A stretch of 64,000 nucleotides of DNA from Candidatus Omnitrophota bacterium (lineage in GTDB: Bacteria; Omnitrophota; Gorgyraeia; Zapsychrales; Fredricksoniimonadaceae), in contig JAUSEK010000004.1 of NCBI GenBank assembly GCA_030650275.1, forward strand, positions 24,196-88,195, written 5' to 3'. The position numbers were made by a program, and so were the translations under genes. The notes beneath the pieces were generated by a model. That model made no database searches. It saw only the letters and a list, made by a program, of their open reading frames with translations, and was not told the origin of the DNA. Positions 3,411 through 64,000 of the stretch are shown in pieces; positions within the stretch are counted from its first letter, which is position 1, and the number at the start of each line of letters is the position of its first letter.

Positions 3411-4166
3411 CTATTGTGTCAGTATTTCCGGCCCCTGGGCTGTGACGACAACCGTATGCTCAAAATGAGCGGACGGTTGACCGTCCGCGGTCACCACGGT
3501 CCAGCCGTCTTTCAATATCTTCGTCCGGTGCGTTCCCATGTTGACCATGGGCTCTATGGCCAGCACCATCCCCGGTTTCAAAACAGGCCCCTGATGGGGC
3601 GGGCCGTAATTAGGGATCTCCGGGTCTTCGTGCAATTGCCTGCCGATGCCGTGTCCGACAAAATCCCGCACCACCGAAAATCCGTGCAATTCCACATAAC
3701 TTTGCACGGCAAAAGAAATATCAGAGAGCCGGTTGTCCGCGCGCGCCTGTTCAATGCCCTTATACAAGGACGCTTGGGCCACCTGCAGCAGGCGTTGGGT
3801 CTCGGGGGCCACACGGCCGATCGGGACCGTCACGGCGGTATCGGAATAATAATCGTCGTGGATAATGCCCACATCAAGGCTGACAATATCGCCCTCTTTG
3901 AGGACATACCCGCCGGGAATGCCGTGCACCACCCCCTCATTGACCGAAATGCAGGCCGACGCGGGGAACCCGTGATAGCCCTTGAACGCGGGGAGCACGT
4001 TGTGCCGCTTGACCAGCGCTTCGGCCCTGGCGTCAATGCCCTTGGTCGTCATTCCAACTGTTAAAGAGCCCTTCAATTCCTCAATAATGGAAGACAAAAT
4101 TTTACCAGCTTTGCGTAAAATGTCAATCTCGCCGGGGCTTTTGATCTTGATCTGGCTTGTTGTCAT
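3411..4166 (-). CDS. map: type I methionine aminopeptidase
   Basis: 251-aa ORF with MetAP metal-binding residue pattern (D..D..H..E..E); position between adk and infA; 44-nt overlap with adk 3' end. Confidence 0.9.
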   Translation of the reverse strand: MTTSQIKIKSPGEIDILRKAGKILSSIIEELKGSLTVGMTTKGIDARAEALVKRHNVLPAFKGYHGFPASACISVNEGVVHGIPGGYVLKEGDIVSLDVGIIHDDYYSDTAVTVPIGRVAPETQRLLQVAQASLYKGIEQARADNRLSDISFAVQSYVELHGFSVVRDFVGHGIGRQLHEDPEIPNYGPPHQGPVLKPGMVLAIEPMVNMGTHRTKILKDGWTVVTADGQPSAHFEHTVVVTAQGPEILTQ

Positions 4167-4833
4167 TGAGGATGCTGATCAAATGGTCGCGCACATCCGT
4201 TGTTTGGGCGTTGCCGTCGACCTCTTTTAATTTTTTCTGCCTGGCATAATAATCGATAATAGGTTTTGTGCTGGTGGCGTAGACATCCATGCGCTTGCGG
4301 ATGGTGTCCTCATTATCGTCGGAACGCTGATACACTGGTCCGCCGCAAAGGTCGCACACGCCCTGCGTCTTGGGCGGTTTATTCGTTAAATGGTAAAGAG
4401 CGCCGCATGTCTTGCACACCCGCCGGCCCGTGAGGCGCATCAGGATGATGTCCAGGTCAGCCCGCATGTAAAGAGCAAAATCCAAAGGTTTTTTGGCCTT
4501 GGCCAGCATCGCGTCCAGGTCCTGGGCCTGCTTGACCGTGCGGGGAAACCCGTCGAGCATATACCCTTGGGCCAGGTCCGGGTCATGGCTCACTTTTTCC
4601 TGGACCAGCCGCGTGACCACGTCATCGGGGACCAATTCTCCCCTTTCAACGAAACCTTTGATTTCTTGGCCCAAGACGGAAATTTTTCCGCCGGAGGCGG
4701 ATCCGCCTTTGGCGGACATCTCCTCACGGAGCATATCGCCGGTGGAAATGTGCGCGATGCCCGTCATGCCCTTGATGAACCCTGCCAAAGAACCTTTGCC
4801 CGCGCCCGGAGGACCCAAAAGCACGATCCTCAT
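4123..4833 (-). CDS. adk: adenylate kinase (contains in-frame 9-aa [10 protein letters not shown] insert from a GC palindrome)
   Basis: ORF-track ORF extends to 5028, but the Adk P-loop start MRIVLLGPPGAGKGS lies at 4833, giving an ATGA overlap with the secY stop; LID-domain Cys4 motif CKTCG...CDLCGG present. Confidence 0.88.
   Translation of the reverse strand: MRIVLLGPPGAGKGSLAGFIKGMTGIAHISTGDMLREEMSAKGGSASGGKISVLGQEIKGFVERGELVPDDVVTRLVQEKVSHDPDLAQGYMLDGFPRTVKQAQDLDAMLAKAKKPLDFALYMRADLDIILMRLTGRRVCKTCGALYHLTNKPPKTQGVCDLCGGPVYQRSDDNEDTIRKRMDVYATSTKPIIDYYARQKKLKEVDGNAQTTDVRDHLISILNDNKPDQDQKPRRD
4684..4718 (-). repeat. 35-nt GC-rich palindromic element ttttccgccggaggcggatccgcctttggcggaca inside adk
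   Basis: Identical 35-mer at 14843..14877 inside rplC; both in-frame, encoding [10 protein letters not shown]. Confidence 0.75.
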
Positions 4834-7707: not shown

Positions 7708-7736
7708 GTACAGACGCAGCATTGCTGCGTCTCTAC
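7708..7736 (-). repeat. 29-nt palindromic hairpin gtacagacgcagcattgctgcgtctctac in rplF-rplR spacer; its 3' ctac supplies the rplF TAG stop
   Basis: Near-identical copy at 8290..8318 (1-2 nt difference in loop). Confidence 0.6.
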
Positions 7737-8289: not shown

Positions 8290-8318
8290 GTACAGACGCA
8301 GCAATGCTGCGTCTCTAC
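8290..8318 (-). repeat. 29-nt palindromic hairpin gtacagacgcagcaatgctgcgtctctac in rpsH-rplF spacer; 3' ctac supplies the rpsH TAG stop
   Basis: Second copy of the 7708..7736 element. Confidence 0.6.
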
Positions 8319-14260: not shown

Positions 14261-15004
14261 TTACTTCTTCGTGGTTTTGGCGACAGAGGCCTTGCTCTGC
14301 TTCATCGGGTTACGCTTGACGGCAACGGTCTCCTGTTTCTCTTCAAGCGAGCGAAAAACCTTCTTCTTGGACCTATTGATCAAAATAATGGCGTTGGTGT
14401 GGCCCGGGACAGCGCCCTTGACCAGGATCAAATTATTACCGGCATCCACCTTCATGACGCGCAAGCTCTGCACGGTCACGGTGTCCGCGCCCATGTGGCC
14501 GGGCATATGCGTGCCTTTATAGACGCGCGAGGGGTCGGAACTCGCACCGATGGAACCAACACGGCGGTGATGCATGGAGCCGTGCGCGGCCGGACCGCCA
14601 CTCCAGTTCCAGCGCACCATGCCGCCCTGGAAACCTTTGCCGATGGACGTGCCGGTGACGTCCACGAAATCCCCGGCCTTGAAAAGGTCGGCCTTCAATT
14701 CCTGGCCGACTTTGTAATCTTTGTTGTCGGAGGAAAAAAATTCATTGATATGCTTCAAAGGCGCGACGCCGATCTTCTTAAAAAAACCGCTTTCGGGTTT
14801 TTTCAAACGGGTCTCTTTGACAGGAGCATAGCCCAAAATCACTTTTCCGCCGGAGGCGGATCCGCCTTTGGCGGACACGGGCTTTTCCCTCAACCCCAAA
14901 ATGGTGCAGGGACCGGCTTCGACCACGGTGACGGGAACAATGTTGCCCTCATTGTCGAAGATCTGGGTCATGCCCACTTTTTTGCCCATTAAACCGCGGA
15001 TCAT
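14261..15004 (-). CDS. rplC: 50S ribosomal protein L3 (contains the same in-frame [10 protein letters not shown] insert as adk)
   Basis: 247-aa canonical L3. Confidence 0.95.
14843..14877 (-). repeat. 35-nt GC-rich palindromic element inside rplC, identical to the copy in adk
   Basis: See 4684..4718. Confidence 0.75.
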
Positions 15005-18653: not shown

Positions 18654-18725
18654 GAATTATGGGGACACAAAACTTAATTCGAAACTAAAGTACACTAAGA
18701 ATTAAGTATTGTGTCCCTATAATTC
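18654..18725 (-). repeat. Inverted repeat with 27-nt arms (gaattatggggacacaaaacttaattc / gaattaagtattgtgtccctataattc) and 18-nt spacer in the rpsG-fusA intergenic region; abuts rpsG TAG stop
   Basis: Arms are reverse complements with 2 mismatches; a third copy of the arm lies at 59258..59285. Confidence 0.6.
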
Positions 18726-27094: not shown

Positions 27095-27111
27095 AGTTCC
27101 CTTTTTTTAAT

Positions 27112-27152
27112 GGGGACAGCGCCCTATTGATCACGAGTAGGGCGCTGTCCCC
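27112..27152 (-). promoter_or_regulatory. Perfect 15-bp-stem hairpin (ggggacagcgcccta/11-nt loop/tagggcgctgtcccc) in rplL-rpoB intergenic region; candidate attenuator / RNase III processing site
   Basis: Perfect inverted repeat seen directly; the position matches the known rplL-rpoB attenuator in other bacteria; no U-tract follows, so not a classical intrinsic terminator. Confidence 0.35.
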
Positions 27153-27175
27153 TAAAAATAACAATACAGAGAGAA

Positions 27176-29997: not shown

Positions 29998-30026
29998 AAA
30001 ATCCTTGTTCCCGCGTCGGATGTTTC

Positions 30027-30207
30027 GGGGCTCCTTCGAGTCCTGCAGCCAATCAAACAGGCCAGGCAGGACTCGCCGCCCCGACTTTTCTGGAATGATT
30101 GAAGTCGGGGTCGGGCACCCGCCCCATCAACTGCTCCTGTTCGTCGCAGTTGATAATCGGGGCTCCTTCGAGTCCTGCAGCCAATCAAACAGGCCAGGCA
30201 GGACTCG
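30027..30207 (-). repeat. Two 49-nt direct repeats (30027..30075 and 30159..30207). The downstream copy comprises the last 18 nt of tRNA-Trp plus 31 nt of 3' flank; att-site-like duplication
   Basis: Identical 49-mers 132 nt apart; the second overlaps the tRNA-Trp 3' end. Confidence 0.6.
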
Positions 30208-30263
30208 AACCTGCAACATACGGTTTTGGAGACCGTCGCTCTACCAATTGGAGCTACTGGCCT
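30190..30263 (-). tRNA. tRNA-Trp (anticodon CCA), 74 nt, CCA end not encoded
   Basis: Manual fold: acceptor AGGCCAG/CTGGCCT, anticodon loop CTCCAAA, T-loop GGTTCGAGTCC; canonical location between rpmG and secE. Confidence 0.85.
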
Positions 30264-30432
30264 AAAATGCTCGTTTCACTCGCATTTTCCGCTAGGGGGG
30301 CAAGCCCCCCTTCGGCGCTCGCTATCGCTCGCTGAGCACCCCCCAAACGTGGGGAAAGGTTTTCCCCACACCCCTTTCAGCATCCCTATCCCATCAAAAA
30401 ATTCGTGAACGGGATGCTTGGGCGCAATATAT

Positions 30433-40351: not shown

Positions 40352-43300
40352 TTATGTCGCCTGGGCCAGGGACGCAGCGGGTTGGCTGTCACGAATTTCA
40401 GAAAAGAACGGCAGGGTGTTCCAGGTACCGGTATTGATCTCCTTGATGCGGGGCACGAAGCCGCTGATGGGTTCCTTCAAAAGCCATTCAAATCCCTGGG
40501 GCACGGGGAAATTCACCTTCTTGCCCTCAAATTCAATGGTCCCCAGTTGGTCATTTAAGTCGATACCGCCTGTTTTCTCACGAGCCGTCATCGCCCCATC
40601 CGCCGCGGTCGCATCCGGAGCCGCCGTCGCCGTACTCACATCAATTCTCAATCTTGCTTCAATTATTGCTATTGCCTCATCAATAACACTCACAATAGTA
40701 CGATAGTGTACATAGTCTGCACCAAAGGATCTACCTTTCTGTTTCTCATTTTCTGACTTTGCATCTCTCAAAAGTTGAATTTTTTCCCCCACAGCTGTCG
40801 CAGCTAAAAATGATTCCCTAAACCTATTTCCCCACAACATCGTTTCAGCCAGCTTTTCTAATTGACTACCTATCAATCTATCTGCTTCATCTGCCATCAT
40901 CGCTTGGTCTGTCTTACTTCCTTTTGCAACGTCGAAGGAATGAATTCTTCTGTCTATCGTTTGAACTAATATTCTTCGGCGCTGAACGTCAAATCTGCCA
41001 GATACCCGTGCGCCTTTCGCATCCTCCAATAATTGCCCTAAACGGTCCCTCATATCCGGAGAGTCCGGTTGTTCTTTAACTGCGTCATATCGGTTCCTAA
41101 TGGCTTCGATGCTCATGGCCTGCTTTTGTTGCTCATCAAATCGTCTTATTTCCTCTCTAATACCGTCCAACTCCGATATAATTTGGGCAGATTCTACATC
41201 ACTCATGTCGCCATCAGCACTACGCTTCTGATATGTTTGAATTAATCGAGGAATAATACCCCGCTCTCCTACTTCTCTGGCGGTCTTGTACCCGTTTTCA
41301 TCATCAGAAAAAACCGCATCCTTTATTAAATTATGCCGCGCCAGTGCTGCCAGGACCCTGCCCCTTGCCTCTTGAGCCGTCATCGCCGCGTCCGCGCCCC
41401 CGGCCGGAGCCGTCATCGCCTGATCCGAAGCGGCCACTTTCAATGCATCGATCTGGCGCTTTAAACTAGAACTCAGGAGTGGGCCATAATTGCTGAGTAT
41501 TTCATCAGCTTCCCTCATGATCGATGTTCTTTCAGTCCGGTTACTCCCGGCACGATTGTATCTCGACGTCAGGTTATTGACCCAATTATTCAAAGCGGCC
41601 TGCTGGTTCTGCCGCGCCACATTCCCGTTCTGGGACAACTGCCCCATGAGGTCTGCCGGCGTCATGGGCTTTCCCTTGCTGTCGACAATGCCTTTCACGC
41701 CCGTTAATTGCTTGCCCACTGCAGCAGAATTGGCGCTAATCTCGACGGCTACATCTCCAAATAATTTTGTAGCCGTTCTATGATCCCCTTTGTCGAAGGC
41801 GGCGCTGGCCCTTTGATTAAGATCGTTGGTCTTTTTCACCAAACCTTGATAAGCCGCAAAGCCGTCATTGGACGGCACCTGCGCGCGACCTCCTGCGCTA
41901 CCGATGGACGCATTGTGTTCAGCGGCCTCCGCATTCTTCTGGGCCGTCTGGCCAATAGTAAACAACTGCCCCAACAAGCCAGCGGCAGTCACTGGCTTCT
42001 TAACGCCGTTTTCTTTGGTATAAATGCCGGATGGAAACCTCAATCCTTCAAAACGTTTGCGTTCAGCGGTGGCTTTTTGGGCCGCTTCTCTATAGCGTTT
42101 TGCGGACTCGTCAAATTTCTTCTGCTCGAATAACTGGTTCGCTTGATTGATCATGGTCTGGATCTCTAATATGGACGCATTATATTCACTAAAAACATCT
42201 GCCGGCGTCATCGCTTGCTTGGCCGCGGCTGCAGTCGGCGCTTTTTGGGATTGGGAGGGCATGGCATTGGTCAACCCTGGGGAAACAGCCAAAGCAATCG
42301 TTATGGCCGCCGCCCTCCATAAACTACCGGCGCCCGATATCATCGCCTCGTCTGCGGTCTTGAACCTATCACGCAAACGACTCCTCTCAACTCTCATACG
42401 ACGCAATTCTCCGGTAATGTTGTCAATTGCTGTACGTGCAGTTTCTCTGGGACCTGGTCTATCACTTCGACCCAGTCCACCATCAAGGGGATATAGTGAA
42501 TGGTTGTACAAGAATCGCTGGTCCGCTAATTGTCCCTCGGCCTCCGCTATTGCCCTCTCTACTGCGTCTAATTCGAGTCTAATTTGACTCGCCGTCTTCC
42601 CTAAACGTGGCATTCTTTTCGTAACATCTGCTCGCGCAGAAACATCTTCGGAAATGAACGCCGTTGTTTCGGGCCTACCCTGATCTCTTGCCGTCCGACC
42701 CAAAACCACTCTAACGGTCTCCGCGACTCTTTCATAAAGTCGCCGTATTGAGGGGGGTAACCGATTGACCACTGTCACGGCAACGTCCGCACCCGCAAAA
42801 CTCGTCCCACCCGAAAAATACTTCCTGGGGATCATTTGCTGGGTTACGGGGTCCATGTCTTCCTTGATGAAGTTGTAGACGCCCTTTTTATAGGCCTTCA
42901 CGTATTGCTCGAAGATCTGCTGGTTCTGAGAAGGATCATCCAGGGCAATGCCGTTGGTTTTGGCCTTATCTACATAAATTTTGCCTAAGATGCTTTCTTT
43001 GAGGCGCTTCTTGAACCAGGCCGAGAGGATGACGGCATGATAAATTTGACGCAATTGCGCGAAATGCTCTCCTTCATTGACTTCCTTTTCAATTTGAGGA
43101 ATTATGATCTCACGCAGAACCTGAGTGCCTACGGCGTTGATGTTTGGTGAGGCGTTGGGGTGGTTTACCTGGGATGCTTTCGTATTCAATGGTTGGGGGG
43201 TTGGCCAGGTGCTTGGGGACACGTTCTGCGGAACATGTCCCCTGGTTGGCGTCTGGTTCTTTGCAAGGGCGAGGTAATCTTCTTCCAGCATGACCTTCAA

Positions 43301-43930
43301 GTGACTTGACACCACCATAGCCGTATGGCCGTTCTCATACACAACGGCCTTTTGCGGCACGATCCAGACCTTATTAAAGGTATTGACCGGCACTTCGGTG
43401 GTGCCGAATTGCTGCTTGGTGCGGCTATAGACATTGTCCCAGAATTTCTTGCCTAATTCTTTGTCCGGATGGATCAGCGAGGCGGTCAATTGCTTGAGGA
43501 TATAATCCTGGGCCAGAAGATCTCGGCCTGTTTCCGTCTGCCCGAAATCCTGCGGCACGATCCTCCCCGCTTCATAAGGAGAAAGGTTGACCCACATGTC
43601 CTTTTCAGGGGTGGTCAGCGCGGCCATGAAATACTTCACTAATTTTAAGTACTCTTCCTGCTTCTGGTCTGCCGCAAGGGCCTTGTCGCCGGGCTGGATA
43701 AGAAAATCGAATTCAAGGGGGTTATTCGGGTTGACCTTAATGCCGGTCAAAACAGCAGGGGCAAAGGACTTGGATAAATTGACCATGGTGCCCGGGGCCG
43801 GCAGGTTTAAAACCTGGGCCCGGGCCTGGGGCATGGGCCCCAATAGGGTAAAGGCAAAGGCGGTAATAATAGAGTAAACAACACCACGAAAACCGGGGCA
43901 GGAGCGTTGACGCTGCGTATGGGATATCAT
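40352..43930 (-). CDS. 1192-aa secreted repeat/coiled-coil protein of unknown function (Sec signal; AMT[PA]AD / GADAAMTAQE repeats; central hydrophobic segment)
   Basis: Single long ORF preceded by a strong promoter-like element and AAGGAAAG RBS; signal peptide ...TAFAFTLLGPMPQARAQV; no recognisable catalytic domain by eye. Confidence 0.7.
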   Translation of the reverse strand: MISHTQRQRSCPGFRGVVYSIITAFAFTLLGPMPQARAQVLNLPAPGTMVNLSKSFAPAVLTGIKVNPNNPLEFDFLIQPGDKALAADQKQEEYLKLVKYFMAALTTPEKDMWVNLSPYEAGRIVPQDFGQTETGRDLLAQDYILKQLTASLIHPDKELGKKFWDNVYSRTKQQFGTTEVPVNTFNKVWIVPQKAVVYENGHTAMVVSSHLKVMLEEDYLALAKNQTPTRGHVPQNVSPSTWPTPQPLNTKASQVNHPNASPNINAVGTQVLREIIIPQIEKEVNEGEHFAQLRQIYHAVILSAWFKKRLKESILGKIYVDKAKTNGIALDDPSQNQQIFEQYVKAYKKGVYNFIKEDMDPVTQQMIPRKYFSGGTSFAGADVAVTVVNRLPPSIRRLYERVAETVRVVLGRTARDQGRPETTAFISEDVSARADVTKRMPRLGKTASQIRLELDAVERAIAEAEGQLADQRFLYNHSLYPLDGGLGRSDRPGPRETARTAIDNITGELRRMRVERSRLRDRFKTADEAMISGAGSLWRAAAITIALAVSPGLTNAMPSQSQKAPTAAAAKQAMTPADVFSEYNASILEIQTMINQANQLFEQKKFDESAKRYREAAQKATAERKRFEGLRFPSGIYTKENGVKKPVTAAGLLGQLFTIGQTAQKNAEAAEHNASIGSAGGRAQVPSNDGFAAYQGLVKKTNDLNQRASAAFDKGDHRTATKLFGDVAVEISANSAAVGKQLTGVKGIVDSKGKPMTPADLMGQLSQNGNVARQNQQAALNNWVNNLTSRYNRAGSNRTERTSIMREADEILSNYGPLLSSSLKRQIDALKVAASDQAMTAPAGGADAAMTAQEARGRVLAALARHNLIKDAVFSDDENGYKTAREVGERGIIPRLIQTYQKRSADGDMSDVESAQIISELDGIREEIRRFDEQQKQAMSIEAIRNRYDAVKEQPDSPDMRDRLGQLLEDAKGARVSGRFDVQRRRILVQTIDRRIHSFDVAKGSKTDQAMMADEADRLIGSQLEKLAETMLWGNRFRESFLAATAVGEKIQLLRDAKSENEKQKGRSFGADYVHYRTIVSVIDEAIAIIEARLRIDVSTATAAPDATAADGAMTAREKTGGIDLNDQLGTIEFEGKKVNFPVPQGFEWLLKEPISGFVPRIKEINTGTWNTLPFFSEIRDSQPAASLAQAT

Positions 43931-44128: not shown

Positions 44129-45535
44129 TTAATCGATCTTGACCTTTCCCCGGCCTTCGCAATACGGGCAGGCGTGGAATTTCAGCGACTCAATGGTCTT
44201 TCCCGTGCGCGCCCGGGTCATCTCCACCAGCCCCAGGGCGGAAATGCGGTTGACCTCGGTCTTGGCATGGTCCTTGACCAACTCCTCCCGCAGGGTGTTC
44301 ACGACCCTGCGCTTATGGTCTTCCCGGTTCATGTCAATGAAATCAATGACGATGATGCCGCCTAAGTCCCTCAAACGCAATTGCCGCGCGATCTCGGGGG
44401 CCGCTTCCACATTGACCGCGAACGACGCGTCTTCCGGCGTGCCCCGGCCCTTGAAACGGCCGCTGTTGACGTCCACGACGATCAGCCCTTCCGTGGGTTC
44501 AATGACGATGTAGGCACCGGATTTGAGATACACCTTGCTCTCATAAATTTTCTCCAGTTCATGCGCGACGTTTTTCGCCTCAAACAACGGCTGGGGGCCC
44601 TGATGATGCTGGATCTTGTCCATCATCTCCTGGCCGCTGATGGTCTGGGCGAACTTGCGCATCTTGATGAACTCCTCCTCGGAGTCAATGATGAGCCGGT
44701 CCACCTCGTCTTTGAGCAGATCGCGCACGACCTTCCAGATCAGGTCATACTCTTTATAGACCAGCGCCGGGGCCTGCTTTTGTTTGGAGAGATGGCGTAC
44801 TTTTTCCCACATGGCCGTCAAAAATTTGGCGTCGCGGGTGAGTTCCTTCTCGCCCTGGTCCACGGACGCCGTGCGCACGATGAACCCGCCGGACCTGGCA
44901 AAATTGAACGTCCTGAGGATATCGCGCAGACGCTGGCGTTCTTCAGGTTTTTCGATCTTTTTGGAAATGCCGTTATGCTTGTCCAGCGGCATATACACCA
45001 CGAAACGCCCTGCCAGGCTGATATGCGTCGTCAAACGCGGGCCCTTGGTGCCGAAGGGGTCTTTGACCACCTGCACCAGGATCTCCTGGTCTTTTTTCAA
45101 AGGCAGCGGCGACTGCTGTTTGGGACGTCTGCCCTGTCTGGGGTTCTGTGGCGGCTGTTGAGGGGGTTGTTGATCCGGTTTAGCCCCGCCGTAGGCGGGG
45201 ACGGGCCCCGCCATAGGCGGAGCAGGCTGGGGAAAGATCATGTTGATGATCTTCTGGCCCACGCCCACCACCGGCTCTTCTTCGATCCGGTCAACTTCCT
45301 TGAGCAAAGGATTGTCGGCGTCGGTCAGGTATAAAAACCCGTTCTTCTCCTGGCCGATGTTAACGAACGCCCCGTTGATGGACGGTAAAATGGACTCGAC
45401 CTTGCCTTTGTAAATATTGCCCAGCATGGACTGGTGGCGGTCGAGCTCAATGTAAAAATCATCCAGTTTTCCGTCGGACAGAACAGCGACGCGCCGTTCG
45501 CCTTGCGCGACTTGCACTAAAATTTCTTTGGACAC
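44129..45535 (-). CDS. rng: ribonuclease G/E-family endoribonuclease (Rng-like) with Pro/Gln-rich insert
   Basis: 468 aa; S1 domain, DNase-I-like core, CPYCEGRG zinc-link motif near C-terminus. Confidence 0.85.
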   Translation of the reverse strand: MSKEILVQVAQGERRVAVLSDGKLDDFYIELDRHQSMLGNIYKGKVESILPSINGAFVNIGQEKNGFLYLTDADNPLLKEVDRIEEEPVVGVGQKIINMIFPQPAPPMAGPVPAYGGAKPDQQPPQQPPQNPRQGRRPKQQSPLPLKKDQEILVQVVKDPFGTKGPRLTTHISLAGRFVVYMPLDKHNGISKKIEKPEERQRLRDILRTFNFARSGGFIVRTASVDQGEKELTRDAKFLTAMWEKVRHLSKQKQAPALVYKEYDLIWKVVRDLLKDEVDRLIIDSEEEFIKMRKFAQTISGQEMMDKIQHHQGPQPLFEAKNVAHELEKIYESKVYLKSGAYIVIEPTEGLIVVDVNSGRFKGRGTPEDASFAVNVEAAPEIARQLRLRDLGGIIVIDFIDMNREDHKRRVVNTLREELVKDHAKTEVNRISALGLVEMTRARTGKTIESLKFHACPYCEGRGKVKID

Positions 45536-45643: not shown

Positions 45644-47044
45644 TCATTTTCCGCTGGAAGCGGATGCGATGGGATTATTCGCCGTGATGATGTGCGGGGT
45701 CAGGAAGATCAGAAGTTCGGTCTTGTCCGTCTGGTCTTCCTTTTTCTTGAACGCTCCACCAATGAACGGTATATCGCCCAAAAACGGCACCTTCTTCTTG
45801 GTGAACGATGTTTTGTCCTTGATCAATCCCGCGATGACTAAAGTCTGCCCGTTTCTGATCATAACCCTGGTCTTAGCCTGTTCGGTGCTCAGCACCGGCA
45901 CCTTGGCCGTTGCCGCCGGGTCCACCAGCACGTAATCCGTGATCGCCGTAATGGTCGGCTCTAGGTCCAGCGTGACCAGATCCGCGTTGTTCACGTGCGG
46001 CGTGACCTCAAAAATGATCCCGATATCCATATAGTTCCAACCCGACAACTGCAATTTGGCCTGGTCGCTGTTGTAGGTGTACGTCGGAATGGGGTACTGA
46101 CTCCCGACAACGATCTTGGCGGTATTGTTGTCCAGCGTCACGATGCTCGGGTTCGAAAGGATCTTGGTGTCCGTACGCTTGTGGAGCATTTCCAGCGTCG
46201 CCGAAAGCCCGGAGGCATCCAGGGTCCCATATTTGAAATCATTGTTGGCCACCGTAGCGCCGGCAGGGATCATCGTGCTGGTCTCCTGAGTGAAAGGAAA
46301 ACTCGTCGAATGCTGCGAGCCGGTGGCGGTCCCTCCGATCGCCCAGCTGATCCCCAAATTTTCCGTATTGCTCAAGGTTGTCTCCACCACCTTGGCCTCG
46401 ATCAAAACCTGCGGGGTCACGCTGTCCAGTGTCTTGATGACACCGTCCAAAAGTTCTATGTTACCGGCCACATCACGGACAATGAGCACGTTGGTGCGCT
46501 GGTCAAAATTGATATTGCCGCGGCCTGTCTTGATCTTGTTGATGGATTCCACCACCTCCGAGGCCTTGGCAAAATTCAAACTATAGGTCTTGGTCACCAG
46601 CGGCTCCTGGTCCTGGAGCGTTTGATTGTCCTCCCTGCGTTTCTTAAGATTTTCAACGGTGGTGACGGTGACGATATTGCCTTTGCGCTCATACCCGTAG
46701 CCGTAGGTCGCCAGGATCACGTCCAGCGCTCTTTGCCACGGCACATCCGTCAACTGGATGGTGACAACCCCGGTCACCTCGGGGCCGGCCACGATGTTGA
46801 CCCCGCTCTTATAAGAAAGCACCTTGAGGACATTGCGGATATCCGCGTCCTGAAAATCCAGGGACACCAGCCCATTTTCCGATGGCACCACCACAAGCGT
46901 CGGAGGAACAGCCGGCACGGACGCATCCGCCCCGCCGACAGGCCCCGCCATAGGCGGGGGGGCCTCCTGGCTCTGGGTCTGTCCGGGTAATGTCCACGCA
47001 ACAACAAGGGCAAATGCCGCGGCACAGATCAATGAACGCATCAC
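45644..47044 (-). CDS. pilQ: type IV pilus secretin PilQ
   Basis: 466 aa, signal peptide, C-terminal secretin domain ...VPFLGDIPFIGGAFKKK...LLIFLTPHII. Confidence 0.9.
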   Translation of the reverse strand: MMRSLICAAAFALVVAWTLPGQTQSQEAPPPMAGPVGGADASVPAVPPTLVVVPSENGLVSLDFQDADIRNVLKVLSYKSGVNIVAGPEVTGVVTIQLTDVPWQRALDVILATYGYGYERKGNIVTVTTVENLKKRREDNQTLQDQEPLVTKTYSLNFAKASEVVESINKIKTGRGNINFDQRTNVLIVRDVAGNIELLDGVIKTLDSVTPQVLIEAKVVETTLSNTENLGISWAIGGTATGSQHSTSFPFTQETSTMIPAGATVANNDFKYGTLDASGLSATLEMLHKRTDTKILSNPSIVTLDNNTAKIVVGSQYPIPTYTYNSDQAKLQLSGWNYMDIGIIFEVTPHVNNADLVTLDLEPTITAITDYVLVDPAATAKVPVLSTEQAKTRVMIRNGQTLVIAGLIKDKTSFTKKKVPFLGDIPFIGGAFKKKEDQTDKTELLIFLTPHIITANNPIASASSGK

Positions 47045-48562: not shown

Positions 48563-49704
48563 ATTTTGCTTAACCCCAACCCAATGGCCACTCCCAACTG
48601 GGATGAAGACAGATGGATGTCAGACGATGCCACCGACGGACTCAAGCGCAGGCCCGCCACCGGGTCCCAGATCTTGACGCGTATCCCTAAATTCCTTTCA
48701 AACACCCCTTCGATCCCTTTGAGCAAAGACCCTCCGCCCAACAGGAAGAATTCGCCCACCTGGATATTTTTTTCCGTCATGAAATAATCCAGGGACAGGC
48801 GGATCTCATCGATCAGGTTGGCAATGGGCCCCTCGCAGGCGGCCAGCATCGCCTCCGGACGTTCGTTGGGGGCTTTTTTCATCGCCTCGGCCTTGGATTC
48901 GTCCACGCCCAGAACGTGGGCGATCTGTTTAGTCATCTCCCGGCCGCCGACAAAAATGTCCCTGGTGAACCGCGGGGACATGTCCTTGAGGATGATCAGA
49001 TCGCTGACGTCCTCACCGATATCCAGGATCGCCTTGGCCCCGCCATCAGCGGCCCCGCCATCGGCGGGGTGCGGCCCCAGCCGCGCGAACGCATTGGCCA
49101 CGGCAACGGTGTCGATGGTGATATGTTCCAGTTTCAGTCCCAGTTCCTTGAACAGCTTTAATCGCTCGTCCACGATCTCCTTTTTCACCGCAACCACCAA
49201 AACAGACATGCGCTTCTGTGCGTTGGAAGGGTCCAGGATGAAACAATCGGTGTAAATGCTTTGCGGGTCAAAGGGGAAATATTTGTCCAGATCGTACGTG
49301 AAAGATTTGCGCAGGTCCTCCAGGGGCATACGGGGCATATCGATATAACGGATCAGGGTCCCTTTGCCTGAAACCGAAGTCACCAGGGTCTGGTCCGTGT
49401 AACCGATCTTTTTGATCAGTTGGGAAAGGGCGGATTTGACGTCCCCGCCCTGGACCGGCTCGACCGCCCACAAGCGTATCTCAAAACCCGCGCCTGCCCC
49501 GCCTATGGCGGGGCCGATCTCCACGGCCCTGACCGTGCTGGTCCCTATGTCAATACCTAAAACCGATGGCTGTTGAGGACGGGGCACAAAACGTGTGATG
49601 GCTTCTAAATATTGGTTAAAAAGAAACTTAAAATCCATTGCTGTTATTTTAGCAGATTCATGGGCATTATACCTAAAGGAAATAATTAATTTTTTAAAGG
49701 TCAA
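48559..49704 (-). CDS. pilM: type IV pilus assembly ATPase-fold protein PilM (TTG start at 49704; an internal ATG at 49638 is an alternative start)
   Basis: 381 aa actin-like fold ...LGIDIGTSTVRAVEIG...; TTG initiation verified manually. Confidence 0.85.
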   Translation of the reverse strand: MTFKKLIISFRYNAHESAKITAMDFKFLFNQYLEAITRFVPRPQQPSVLGIDIGTSTVRAVEIGPAIGGAGAGFEIRLWAVEPVQGGDVKSALSQLIKKIGYTDQTLVTSVSGKGTLIRYIDMPRMPLEDLRKSFTYDLDKYFPFDPQSIYTDCFILDPSNAQKRMSVLVVAVKKEIVDERLKLFKELGLKLEHITIDTVAVANAFARLGPHPADGGAADGGAKAILDIGEDVSDLIILKDMSPRFTRDIFVGGREMTKQIAHVLGVDESKAEAMKKAPNERPEAMLAACEGPIANLIDEIRLSLDYFMTEKNIQVGEFFLLGGGSLLKGIEGVFERNLGIRVKIWDPVAGLRLSPSVASSDIHLSSSQLGVAIGLGLSKI

Positions 49705-63302: not shown

Positions 63303-64000
63303 GAGGGTGTGCGCACCTGAAGGATGTCCCCCAAATATTCAAAGATCTTCACCCAATGCAGCTGCGGATCAGCCACCCCGCCAAAGGCGGGGCCGGCGAT
63401 ATCCGGATAAACCGTATGGGCCATTTCAAAATAAACGTTCTGGGCTTCCCACAGGTCCAGGTCCAGGCTCAACCCCGTGAAAATCTCGAGAATGGCCGTG
63501 ATCTTTGTCATCAGCAGGATGTCGTGGGGATGTTCGTTGAGCCGGCGCATCAGGCTGTTCAGCCGCTGGCTGGCGAGAAAACCGAAATTCGCCTGGTCGC
63601 GCTTGAACGCCCAGCGCTTCATCTCCTCCGCCAGGCCTTTGAGCCGGTCAATGTCCACGTCGTCTTTTTCCAACACAGCGCACACATCACGGTTGAGGAT
63701 GAATTCAACGACGGTGATCAGCATGCGCGGCAAGGGCAGACGGCCTTCATTCTTGATCTGCATCAAAGGATAATGTTGTTCGTAAATATGGCGAAAACTG
63801 GTCTCGATGTCTTCCATCGCAGAGCGCAGGACCTGGTCAAGAATGTTCTGCTGTTCCTGCTTGAACAAATGCCACAGGGAATAATTCCGGGAACCAAAAT
63901 AACGGTTGATGAGACCGATGACTTCCGGGATATTGCTCTCGGAAAAGGCCTCCGTAAGATCCCGCTGCATAGAGATGTAGTCCCCGGATTTGAAATAGCC
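63299..64000 (-). CDS. C-terminal (DUF3536-like) part of a GH57-type protein; 5' end lies beyond the window
   Basis: Reading frame is open to position 64000; composition and neighbourhood (malQ) typical of GH57/DUF3536 proteins; assignment tentative. Confidence 0.45.
   Translation of the reverse strand, partial: GYFKSGDYISMQRDLTEAFSESNIPEVIGLINRYFGSRNYSLWHLFKQEQQNILDQVLRSAMEDIETSFRHIYEQHYPLMQIKNEGRLPLPRMLITVVEFILNRDVCAVLEKDDVDIDRLKGLAEEMKRWAFKRDQANFGFLASQRLNSLMRRLNEHPHDILLMTKITAILEIFTGLSLDLDLWEAQNVYFEMAHTVYPDIAGPAFGGVADPQLHWVKIFEYLGDILQVRTPS

Follow-up and report, generated by a model that had tools for sequence, protein, structure and literature searches.

Several families of short palindromic or dispersed DNA motifs are known to invade genes or to lie close to them. 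Rickettsia palindromic elements (RPEs), reportedly described by Ogata and colleagues in 2000, are said to measure ~100-150 bp, to lie in-frame in unrelated genes and to be found largely in Rickettsia and its relatives. Mitochondrial GC clusters, the double-hairpin elements of Allomyces and other fungi, and the 'byp' elements of Magnusiomyces are very short GC-rich mobile hairpins that invade coding regions. DNA uptake sequences, such as the DUS of Neisseria and the USS of Pasteurellaceae, are non-palindromic motifs of 9-12 nt, which occur at about one per kb and arise by point mutation; in Haemophilus, USS occur in tolerated frames within genes. Here we describe a 30-nt palindromic element present in two identical copies, one in the adenylate kinase gene adk and the other in the ribosomal protein L3 gene rplC, within a 64,000-nt stretch of a Candidatus Omnitrophota bacterium (contig JAUSEK010000004.1, positions 24,196 to 88,195; hereafter the window). 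The element is closest to RPEs in behaviour, to the doublets of repetitive extragenic palindromic sequences (REPs) known as REPINs and to the mitochondrial double-hairpin and GC-cluster elements in anatomy, and to PARCELs in concept, and it fails the defining features of each compared family. We lean, with some reserve, towards a nucleotide-level insertional repeat family of mobile-DNA type, of which the two window copies would be miniature, non-autonomous palindromic insertion elements.

The 35-mer TTTTCCGCCGGAGGCGGATCCGCCTTTGGCGGACA was found twice on the plus strand, at 4684-4718 and 14843-14877, with 0 mismatches, in both cases inside a gene of the minus strand (Table 1); allowing up to 3 mismatches gave no third copy in the window, and the expectation from 100 shuffles was 0. 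The original prediction of an identical 35-nt sequence on the same strand in both genes was therefore borne out. Orthologue alignment, which had been proposed for setting the limits of the insertion and for detecting any target duplication, revealed at both sites a clean gain of exactly 30 nt, encoding 10 residues, with no duplication. The 35-nt identity consists of this 30-nt element plus the native flanks TTT and CA, such that the Lys (AAA) following the insert and the TG preceding it, in the coding sense, are native flank; the predicted in-frame gain of 10 residues thus holds for the insert, with the residues having been assigned one Lys off. The element comprises two abutting 15-nt units, T-CCGCC-nnn-GGCGG-A, which are mutually inverted copies, and the whole is a near-perfect palindrome. 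The two hairpins anticipated from the sequence were confirmed as units, but they are inverted rather than tandem and may alternatively form a single hairpin: as single-stranded DNA, the element is predicted to fold into two 6-bp hairpins or one 13-bp hairpin (~-13 kcal/mol, z ~-4.5), and as RNA it reaches -20 kcal/mol in the mRNA sense and -25 kcal/mol in the antisense. Each unit spans five codons, and the reverse complement of the element is the element itself; translation in the frame TCC GCC nnn GGC GGA therefore yields S-A-x-G-G twice on either strand.

Table 1. Coordinates of the 30-nt element, its flanks and hosts, and other features of the window.
Feature	Position	Strand	Remarks
30-nt double-hairpin in adk	4687..4716	-	Units 4687-4701 TCCGCC-GGA-GGCGGA and 4702-4716 TCCGCC-TTT-GGCGGA; delimited against empty allele P0121/L124
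Identical 30-nt double-hairpin in rplC	14846..14875	-	Units 14846-14860 and 14861-14875; empty P0002/L121, filled P0005/L123, remnant P0001/L122
Native flank TTT at adk copy (coding-strand Lys AAA)	4684..4686	.	Part of preferred target TT^NA; Lys present in empty orthologues
Native flank TTT at rplC copy (Lys AAA of conserved KV[VI]LGY)	14843..14845	.	
Diverged tract 3' (coding sense) of adk insert	4633..4686	-	From sliding identity against empty allele; read as imported with the element
adk host gene	4123..4833	-	PF00406, PF05191
rplC host gene	14261..15004	-	PF00297
Mini-hairpins CCCCGCC-nnn-GGCGGGG	45184..45200, 45206..45221, 46943..46959, 49040..49069, 49497..49513, 63376..63392		
29-nt GTAG-headed palindrome GTAGAGACGCAGCAATGCTGCGTCTGTAC	7708..7736, 8290..8318		Intergenic, either side of rplF
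51-nt perfect direct repeat	30025..30075, 30157..30207		132 nt apart
tRNA-Trp	30189..30264	-	3' end spanned by second copy of 51-nt repeat
1192-aa open reading frame	40352..43930		Internal 27-nt repeats at 40582, 41374, 41407
Pair of ~565-aa paralogues	52490..54181, 54183..55901		Beside pilus genes
27-nt inverted repeat GAATTATGGGGACACAAAACTTAATTC	18654..18680, 59258..59284		Arms 40 kb apart
Hairpin with GGGGACA core	27103..27161		Core in common with GAATTATGGGGACACAAAACTTAATTC repeat

In a comparison of rplC with its 120 closest L3 homologues (Ribosomal_L3), most homologues were 237 amino acids (aa) long and read ...LKEKP-x-KVVLGY, where the window reads REKPV, the 10-residue insert and KVILGY. 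An empty allele (P0002, 91% protein identity) has CCG GTG^AAG GTG, and the window has CCC GTG TCCGCCAAAGGCGGATCCGCCTCCGGCGGA AAA GTG; no target-site duplication is seen between GTG^AAG (empty) and GTG[30]AAA (filled). In the filled allele P0005/L123, the element is 29/30 identical to that of the window, and 0 of its 10 third codon positions differ, as against 42% in the rest of rplC (P = 0.004). The rplC element is thus constant beyond coding need, through function, homogenisation or re-acquisition. Decayed forms were also observed: P0001 (L122; 94% identity) has one hairpin left after a 21-nt deletion, and another rplC clade bears degenerate inserts at the same site, such as LSAEGKIACGG and one of 22 residues. 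The site is occupied, by intact or decayed copies, in several Omnitrophota lineages down to 83% protein identity, and by these alignments it is evidently old. The case named in advance as one that would tell against an insertion, namely an ancestral feature, is therefore partly realised, at the rplC site only, and close orthologues there are still empty. A milder patch of reduced identity surrounds the insert in this otherwise 97-100% identical gene. The L3 insert aligns to the tip of a beta-hairpin (QRKTAQTDGYEAVQIGY of 1nkw_B) in a PDB sequence alignment, which was used because the AlphaFold2 model of L3 was unusable (mean predicted local distance difference test, pLDDT, 38).

The adk copy has a different history. 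The ten adk homologues closest to the window gene, at 75-91% identity, lack the element and have ATG^AAA AGA TCT, where the window reads ATG, the same 30 nt as in rplC, and AAA ATT TCC; the empty allele P0121/L124 has GAG ATG^AAA, and the comparison of ATG^AAA with ATG[30]AAA again reveals no target-site duplication. All adk homologues compared contain the Pfam domains ADK and ADK_lid. The window gene is 97-100% identical to L124 in nucleotides along its length except over ~54 nt on the 3' side of the insert, where identity is only 50-57% and the two sequences differ by 7 synonymous and 6 non-synonymous substitutions and an indel of 3 nt; on the 5' side, the two are 100% identical right up to the element. 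As the next closest empty homologues (P0122, P0123 and P0125) have the L124 state of this tract, the window lineage would have gained the element together with the diverged tract, which implies that the adk copy probably arrived by recombination with a foreign occupied allele and not by local transposition. An imported tract would likewise explain the K-[IVL]-S motif common to all occupied adk alleles, and since the tract is one codon shorter, the net gain of Adk is only +9 aa instead of the ten expected. Two other Adk proteins, P0131 and P0140, carry one unit each (SAKGG and SASGG, respectively). Two other origins were considered for the adk tract and rejected: an archaeal-type bulge-helix-bulge intron, on sequence grounds (two 3-nt loops face each other), and the variable region of a diversity-generating retroelement (the substitutions are largely synonymous third-position changes and not adenine-specific). 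In the AlphaFold2 model of Adk (mean pLDDT 86), residues 40-49 form a coil between helices 31-39 and 53-63, with pLDDT <50 at residues 43-48 within the insert loop, and alignment to the solved Adk 5g3y placed the insert in the KEGTE loop of the nucleoside monophosphate-binding domain, between alpha2 and alpha3. Together with the beta-hairpin tip of L3, this disordered inter-helix loop agrees with the expectation that insertion is tolerated in surface loops.

The search beyond the window, which had been recommended with the original prediction, revealed the element in many unrelated genes. Genomes, one per species and 596 Gb in total, were scanned with the pattern CCGCCNNNGGCGGATCCGCCNNNGGCGG, in which the stems and the centre were fixed (22 bases) and the loops left free; the pattern was found at at least 120 loci, where ~0.1 chance matches were calculated. 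Among the genome matches listed, all were metagenome-assembled genomes (MAGs), from more than 10 phyla. The carriers include many classes of Patescibacteria, Omnitrophota, Kiritimatiellae, Verrucomicrobiota, Lentisphaerae, Planctomycetes, Ignavibacteria, Bacteroidota, Chloroflexota, Firestonebacteria, Margulisbacteria and Auribacterota, as well as a Desulfotomaculaceae MAG and MAGs labelled Gammaproteobacteria and Deltaproteobacteria. Similarly, the exact 30-mer of the window was found at at least 120 metagenome loci, with ~110 different flank pairs and contig GC contents of 0.35-0.71. The family consensus with flanks is TTT-[TCCGCC-RRA-GGCGGA][TCCGCC-TYY-GGCGGA]-AAA. Among the copies listed, 95% of units have A as the third base of the loop; of 125 copies, only 24 have two loops that are fully complementary, and most loop differences are transitions. 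In density, the window has 2 copies in 64 kb (31 per Mb), and other carriers have ~7-8 extra copies per Mb. The pattern was present in only 2 of 2.9 million viral contigs, GenBank phages gave chance-level partial matches only, and the element was absent from PLSDB plasmids and from every complete E. coli genome; a phage vector is unlikely, given the near-absence from viral contigs and the chance-level phage matches.

Some of these data bear on whether the element is an artefact of assembly, library construction or synthetic linkers. It is reminiscent of engineered Gly/Ser linkers carrying a BamHI site (GGATCC), GGS-type linkers being common in constructs; the motif strings matched only primers, synthetic linkers and analogies in the literature; and every one of the at least 120 genome matches listed is a MAG. 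However, hundreds of contigs contain the element, these come from many independent studies and assemblers, and the flanks differ among them; the element is always continuous with the host reading frame, whereas an adapter would fuse unrelated fragments and not split a gene in-frame. Orthologues also contain variant loops, derivatives changed by 1 nt, remnants of a single hairpin and versions decayed at the protein level. These, too, speak against an artefact, which we consider extremely improbable. No description of the element by concept, sequence or peptide was found in the literature searched, whose coverage of subscription journals was thin, such that an earlier description is possible.

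Identity at the level of nucleotides rather than protein, as originally proposed, was upheld across the family. Across the window and ~0.9 Mb of loci, there were 248 SAxGGSAxGG peptides, 240 of them encoded by the canonical string and the other 8 by one-base derivatives of it; no such peptide was encoded by unrelated codons. About 74% of copies lie within open reading frames (ORFs) of at least 120 aa, among the matches listed. Frame 0, which gives S-A-x-G-G twice, predominated among the copies in long ORFs, with 75 of 92 in the genomes and 88 of 103 in the metagenome contigs; the remaining two frames were used by some copies. In the subfamily of the window, the orientation giving K/S loop codons relative to the gene outnumbers that giving G/F by 69 to 19, a bias that can be explained by selection on loop residues. 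These frame and orientation biases imply that copies are, in all likelihood, translated and filtered by selection. A convergent protein motif, that is, a selected SAxGG linker, would account for the strong preference for one frame and for the K/S over G/F bias, but no instance with alternative codons exists, and some copies lie between genes, within a pseudo-tRNA or in one of the other two frames; we give this explanation almost no credence. Of 30 host ORFs compared with Pfam, 26 were recognisable, and these were unrelated: the hosts include DnaG, FemAB, PurA, tRNA synthetases of Asp/Lys, Phe-beta, Cys, Thr and Ile/Val types, UvrB, Mfd, UvrD, GyrA, PolX, TsaD, a Mur ligase, an S41 protease and solute-binding proteins.

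Individual host loci showed further peculiarities. A recurrent site, YEVEF^NAYNL, lies in the C-terminal sorting domain of the type IX secretion system (L173, L185, L203, L207, L224, L233, L235, L243 and others); the proteins that carry this domain differ (peptidyl-arginine deiminase, M14 carboxypeptidase, BNR protein), and the occupied sorting domain appears to have been shuffled among genes. L016 (pheT) and L059 (S41 protease) each have, in one gene, two copies that differ in their hairpin loops, one near the N-terminus and one internal, which could reflect local hopping or gene-specific tolerance. Among intergenic copies, some are embedded in a 185-nt repeat that occurs several times in one Kiritimatiellae MAG (L006 4569-4752 and 6390-6572; also L003, L053 and L029), and a related flank was found in a Verrucomicrobia MAG. 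In addition, a structured intergenic repeat of ~150 nt, with the element as its central arm, occurs at L236 5-155 and 5465-5615 and in L051, L147, L210 and L225 (Firestonebacteria-like), directly after gene 3' ends and adjoined by arrays of 9-nt tandem repeats (ACCTTACAA-like). Its enclosing stem covaries between contigs, ATGCCGGA/TCCGGCAT versus GTGCCAAA/TTTGGCAC, and its predicted RNA fold has -66.7 kcal/mol (z -6). At L027 (7380-7490 and 7748-7835), a pseudo-copy of the 5' half of tRNA-Ser(TGA) has its anticodon loop (CTTG^AAAA) split by 60 nt, and the intact tRNA lies 350 nt downstream of it. The 60 nt parse as one element placed after the TTG loop of another, for which a nested insertion is the probable reading of the sequence and tandem slippage the alternative. 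Rfam covariance models gave only chance-level scores, far below the gathering scores, for the element, the L027 region and the 150-nt repeat of L236.

The dynamics of the element can be traced in part. The two copies of a same-MAG pair had the same loop pair in 9 of 22 cases, versus 5.4% of random pairs (binomial P ~1e-6), and the copies of the window fit this pattern, indicating that the element multiplies or is homogenised within lineages. Over ~110 distinct sites, the target is TT^NA, with T at frequencies of 0.55, 0.92 and 0.75 at positions -3, -2 and -1 and A at 0.75 at +2. TTT (Phe) precedes the element even when TTT is on the sense strand; as Phe is not what selection for loop residues would choose, this target preference looks mechanistic. 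A location at the apex of pre-existing hairpins was rejected as a general rule for the copies, as flank complementarity was 3.7-4.2 of 12 against 3.85 in a shuffled-flank control. The data show that the element enters DNA at TT^NA without target duplication, and that copies persist mainly where they are read as S-A-x-G-G, at surface loops of proteins that are otherwise ordinary. An occupied allele can apparently move between related lineages by short-patch homologous recombination, as at adk, and copies later decay to single hairpins or to degenerate Gly/Ser-rich loops.

Hairpins might instead be made repeatedly de novo by template switching or snap-back synthesis, with no element being copied. 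In keeping with this, a second set of mini-hairpins in the window (CCCCGCC-nnn-GGCGGGG) lies in other genes and different frames and is also associated with indels (+4 aa in PilM), variant copies of the element have compensatory stem changes (such as CCCTCC/GGAGGG), and, as noted above, the differences between loops are predominantly transitions. A local process, however, would give local palindromes and not one 30-mer at ~110 or more unrelated sites in DNA of such different GC contents, and no stem precursor exists at the empty sites, which makes repeated de novo origin very unlikely in our judgement.

For the insertional repeat family that we favour, the absence of duplication, the short 5' target, the hairpin ends and the precisely empty alleles led us to adopt single-strand hairpin-directed transposition as a working mechanism, at low confidence. 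Insertion would be catalysed in trans by an enzyme recognising hairpins extruded on single-stranded DNA. By analogy, this enzyme might be a Y1/HUH-type transposase of the IS200/IS605 or RAYT kind, an identification that is tentative and rather doubtful. The IS200/IS605 systems are characterised by the lack of target duplication, insertion 3' of a short target, hairpin ends, action in trans and precise excision, and the element has the first three of these. Where TnpA (Y1) acts on an element, orientation is also tied to the replication strand; the 69:19 orientation bias relative to genes is a hint in this direction, and selection on loop residues can explain it as well.

Several observations weigh against an insertional family. 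The copy density outside the window is modest, and the occurrence of one sequence in more than 10 phyla is unlike the lineage-specific REP/RAYT systems. In rplC, the element is conserved above neutral DNA, hinting at function or drive over pure selfishness. Neither window copy is demonstrably transposed where it lies, as the rplC site is old and the adk copy came, by our reading of its tract, through recombination. A length of 30 nt is too short for the guide and cleavage sequences known in IS200/IS605. Furthermore, no transposase, HUH or RAYT gene and no recurrent non-host family was found within 4 kb of 245 copies, and no mobile genes were found among 10 uncharacterised long window ORFs scanned against Pfam; copy pairs 0.8-5 kb apart (L006, L016, L059 and L236) enclose ordinary genes and not transposases. 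The original suggestion of a self-propagating element accordingly found no backing, given the missing target-site duplication and nearby transposase and the recombination tract beside the adk copy.

Part of this evidence would suit a functional or driven cis-sequence, such as a site for a DNA-binding, uptake or recombination protein or an RNA or DNA hairpin, which is kept at the nucleotide level and spread by patch recombination of host genes. Such a sequence would be conserved above coding need, as in rplC, and would be the same across phyla and GC contents; the tract flanking the adk copy and the milder one around the rplC copy would mark its spread. Its near-absence from the 2.9 million viral contigs and absence from the PLSDB plasmids, its occurrence in tolerated frames within genes, as for uptake sequences, and its place as an integral arm of the ~150-nt structured intergenic repeat with covarying stems in some lineages point the same way. 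On the other hand, a 30-nt insertion is beyond point mutation, and a separate insertion mechanism would therefore still be needed. At ~8 copies per Mb, and 31 per Mb in the window, the density of the element is roughly 100-fold under that of known uptake sequences, many copies decay, and no candidate binding protein was identified. We thus regard a cis-sequence of this kind as unlikely, while treating it as a serious competitor.

Comparison with the known systems places the insertional family that we favour among short palindromic repeats colonising coding sequence, within which it is unusual in its minimal size, orientation-independent linker coding and cross-phylum identity. Like RPEs, the element is palindromic, lies in-frame in unrelated and often essential genes, is tolerated at the protein surface, has no transposase of its own and decays. 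In contrast to the family-specific sequences of RPEs, it is a 30-nt sequence with GC-rich stems, encodes a Gly/Ser/Ala linker and is the same in more than 10 phyla; size alone (30 nt versus 100-150) excludes membership. The analogy drawn with RPEs at the outset thus holds for behaviour and not for membership. REPs, which RAYT (Y1/HUH) transposases mobilise, are also short GC-rich hairpins of 20-40 nt, and REPINs are doublets of inverted units, as in the element; however, REPs are extragenic, have a GTAG or CGTC head, are lineage-specific and flank a RAYT gene, whereas the element is mostly intragenic (~74%), has a T-run head (TTT-TCCGCC), crosses phyla and has no RAYT within 4 kb of the 245 copies. 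It recalls miniature inverted-repeat transposable elements in having terminal inverted repeats, of which it is nothing but two abutted 15-nt copies, and differs from them in the absence of target-site duplication at both sites. The mitochondrial double-hairpin elements resemble it in their one- or two-hairpin anatomy within coding DNA and in machinery that is host-supplied or unidentified, but they belong to AT-rich organellar genomes and some are bypassed by ribosomes or lie in variable regions, whereas the present element is bacterial and its frame and orientation biases imply translation. PARCELs likewise combine dyad symmetry in coding DNA with a patchy distribution across clades, ascribed to horizontal gene transfer, and with shuffling within genomes; they form tandem 25-residue amphipathic repeats in functionally uncharacterised surface proteins, in contrast to single 10-residue inserts in housekeeping enzymes. 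Finally, DUS and USS are comparable as short cross-species nucleotide motifs in tolerated gene frames, which spread by recombination tracts and are rare in phages, and differ from an element that is a 30-nt insertion at ~8-30 per Mb.

The window contains other repeats (Table 1). The CCCCGCC-nnn-GGCGGGG mini-hairpins lie in an RNase E/G-like gene, PilQ, PilM and an unannotated ORF, where the frames give PPMAGP versus PAIGG, PAYGG and PAFGG; the indel of the PilM copy is seen against a 91% identical orthologue, and the density of this set is 78 per Mb in the window versus 9 per Mb in other loci. The GTAG-headed palindrome, which is REP-like, occupies the intergenic gaps on both sides of rplF in the ribosomal protein operon, and no further copy of it was found in the window. 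The 51-nt direct repeat has the look of a partial tRNA duplication of att type, as an integrative element would leave behind. The 1192-aa ORF has no Pfam family, and lies in the part of the window with the lowest GC content (0.49) and the strongest GC skew (-0.20). The two ~565-aa paralogues are adjacent, with several nucleotide stretches 71-74% identical at ~1.7-kb spacing, and form a tandem duplication. The 27-nt inverted repeat and the hairpin with which it has the GGGGACA core in common may be another small repeat family.

The element may possibly be the smallest mobile or driven bacterial DNA element yet seen, a 30-nt palindromic linker cassette that is harmless when translated either way and would bespeak cross-phylum machinery and DNA traffic, although we hold this broader view with less confidence than the insertional family itself. 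Its near-unchanged sharing by Patescibacteria (candidate phyla radiation), Omnitrophota, the PVC group and other uncultivated lineages would call for a common machinery, either a hairpin-specific enzyme or an uptake or recombination receptor, together with DNA traffic between phyla. The element would be a pervasive and apparently undescribed genome feature of the least-known bacterial lineages, adding 10-residue loops to ribosomal proteins, kinases, tRNA synthetases and replication and repair enzymes. Gene annotation and phylogenomics are affected, because marker proteins such as L3 carry non-homologous inserts. The element also marks recombination and gene flow between uncultivated lineages and points to a hairpin-recognising activity. 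As a flexible linker in either orientation, it could serve as a model for insertion-tolerant tags, and it would represent a natural source of loop insertions in essential proteins.

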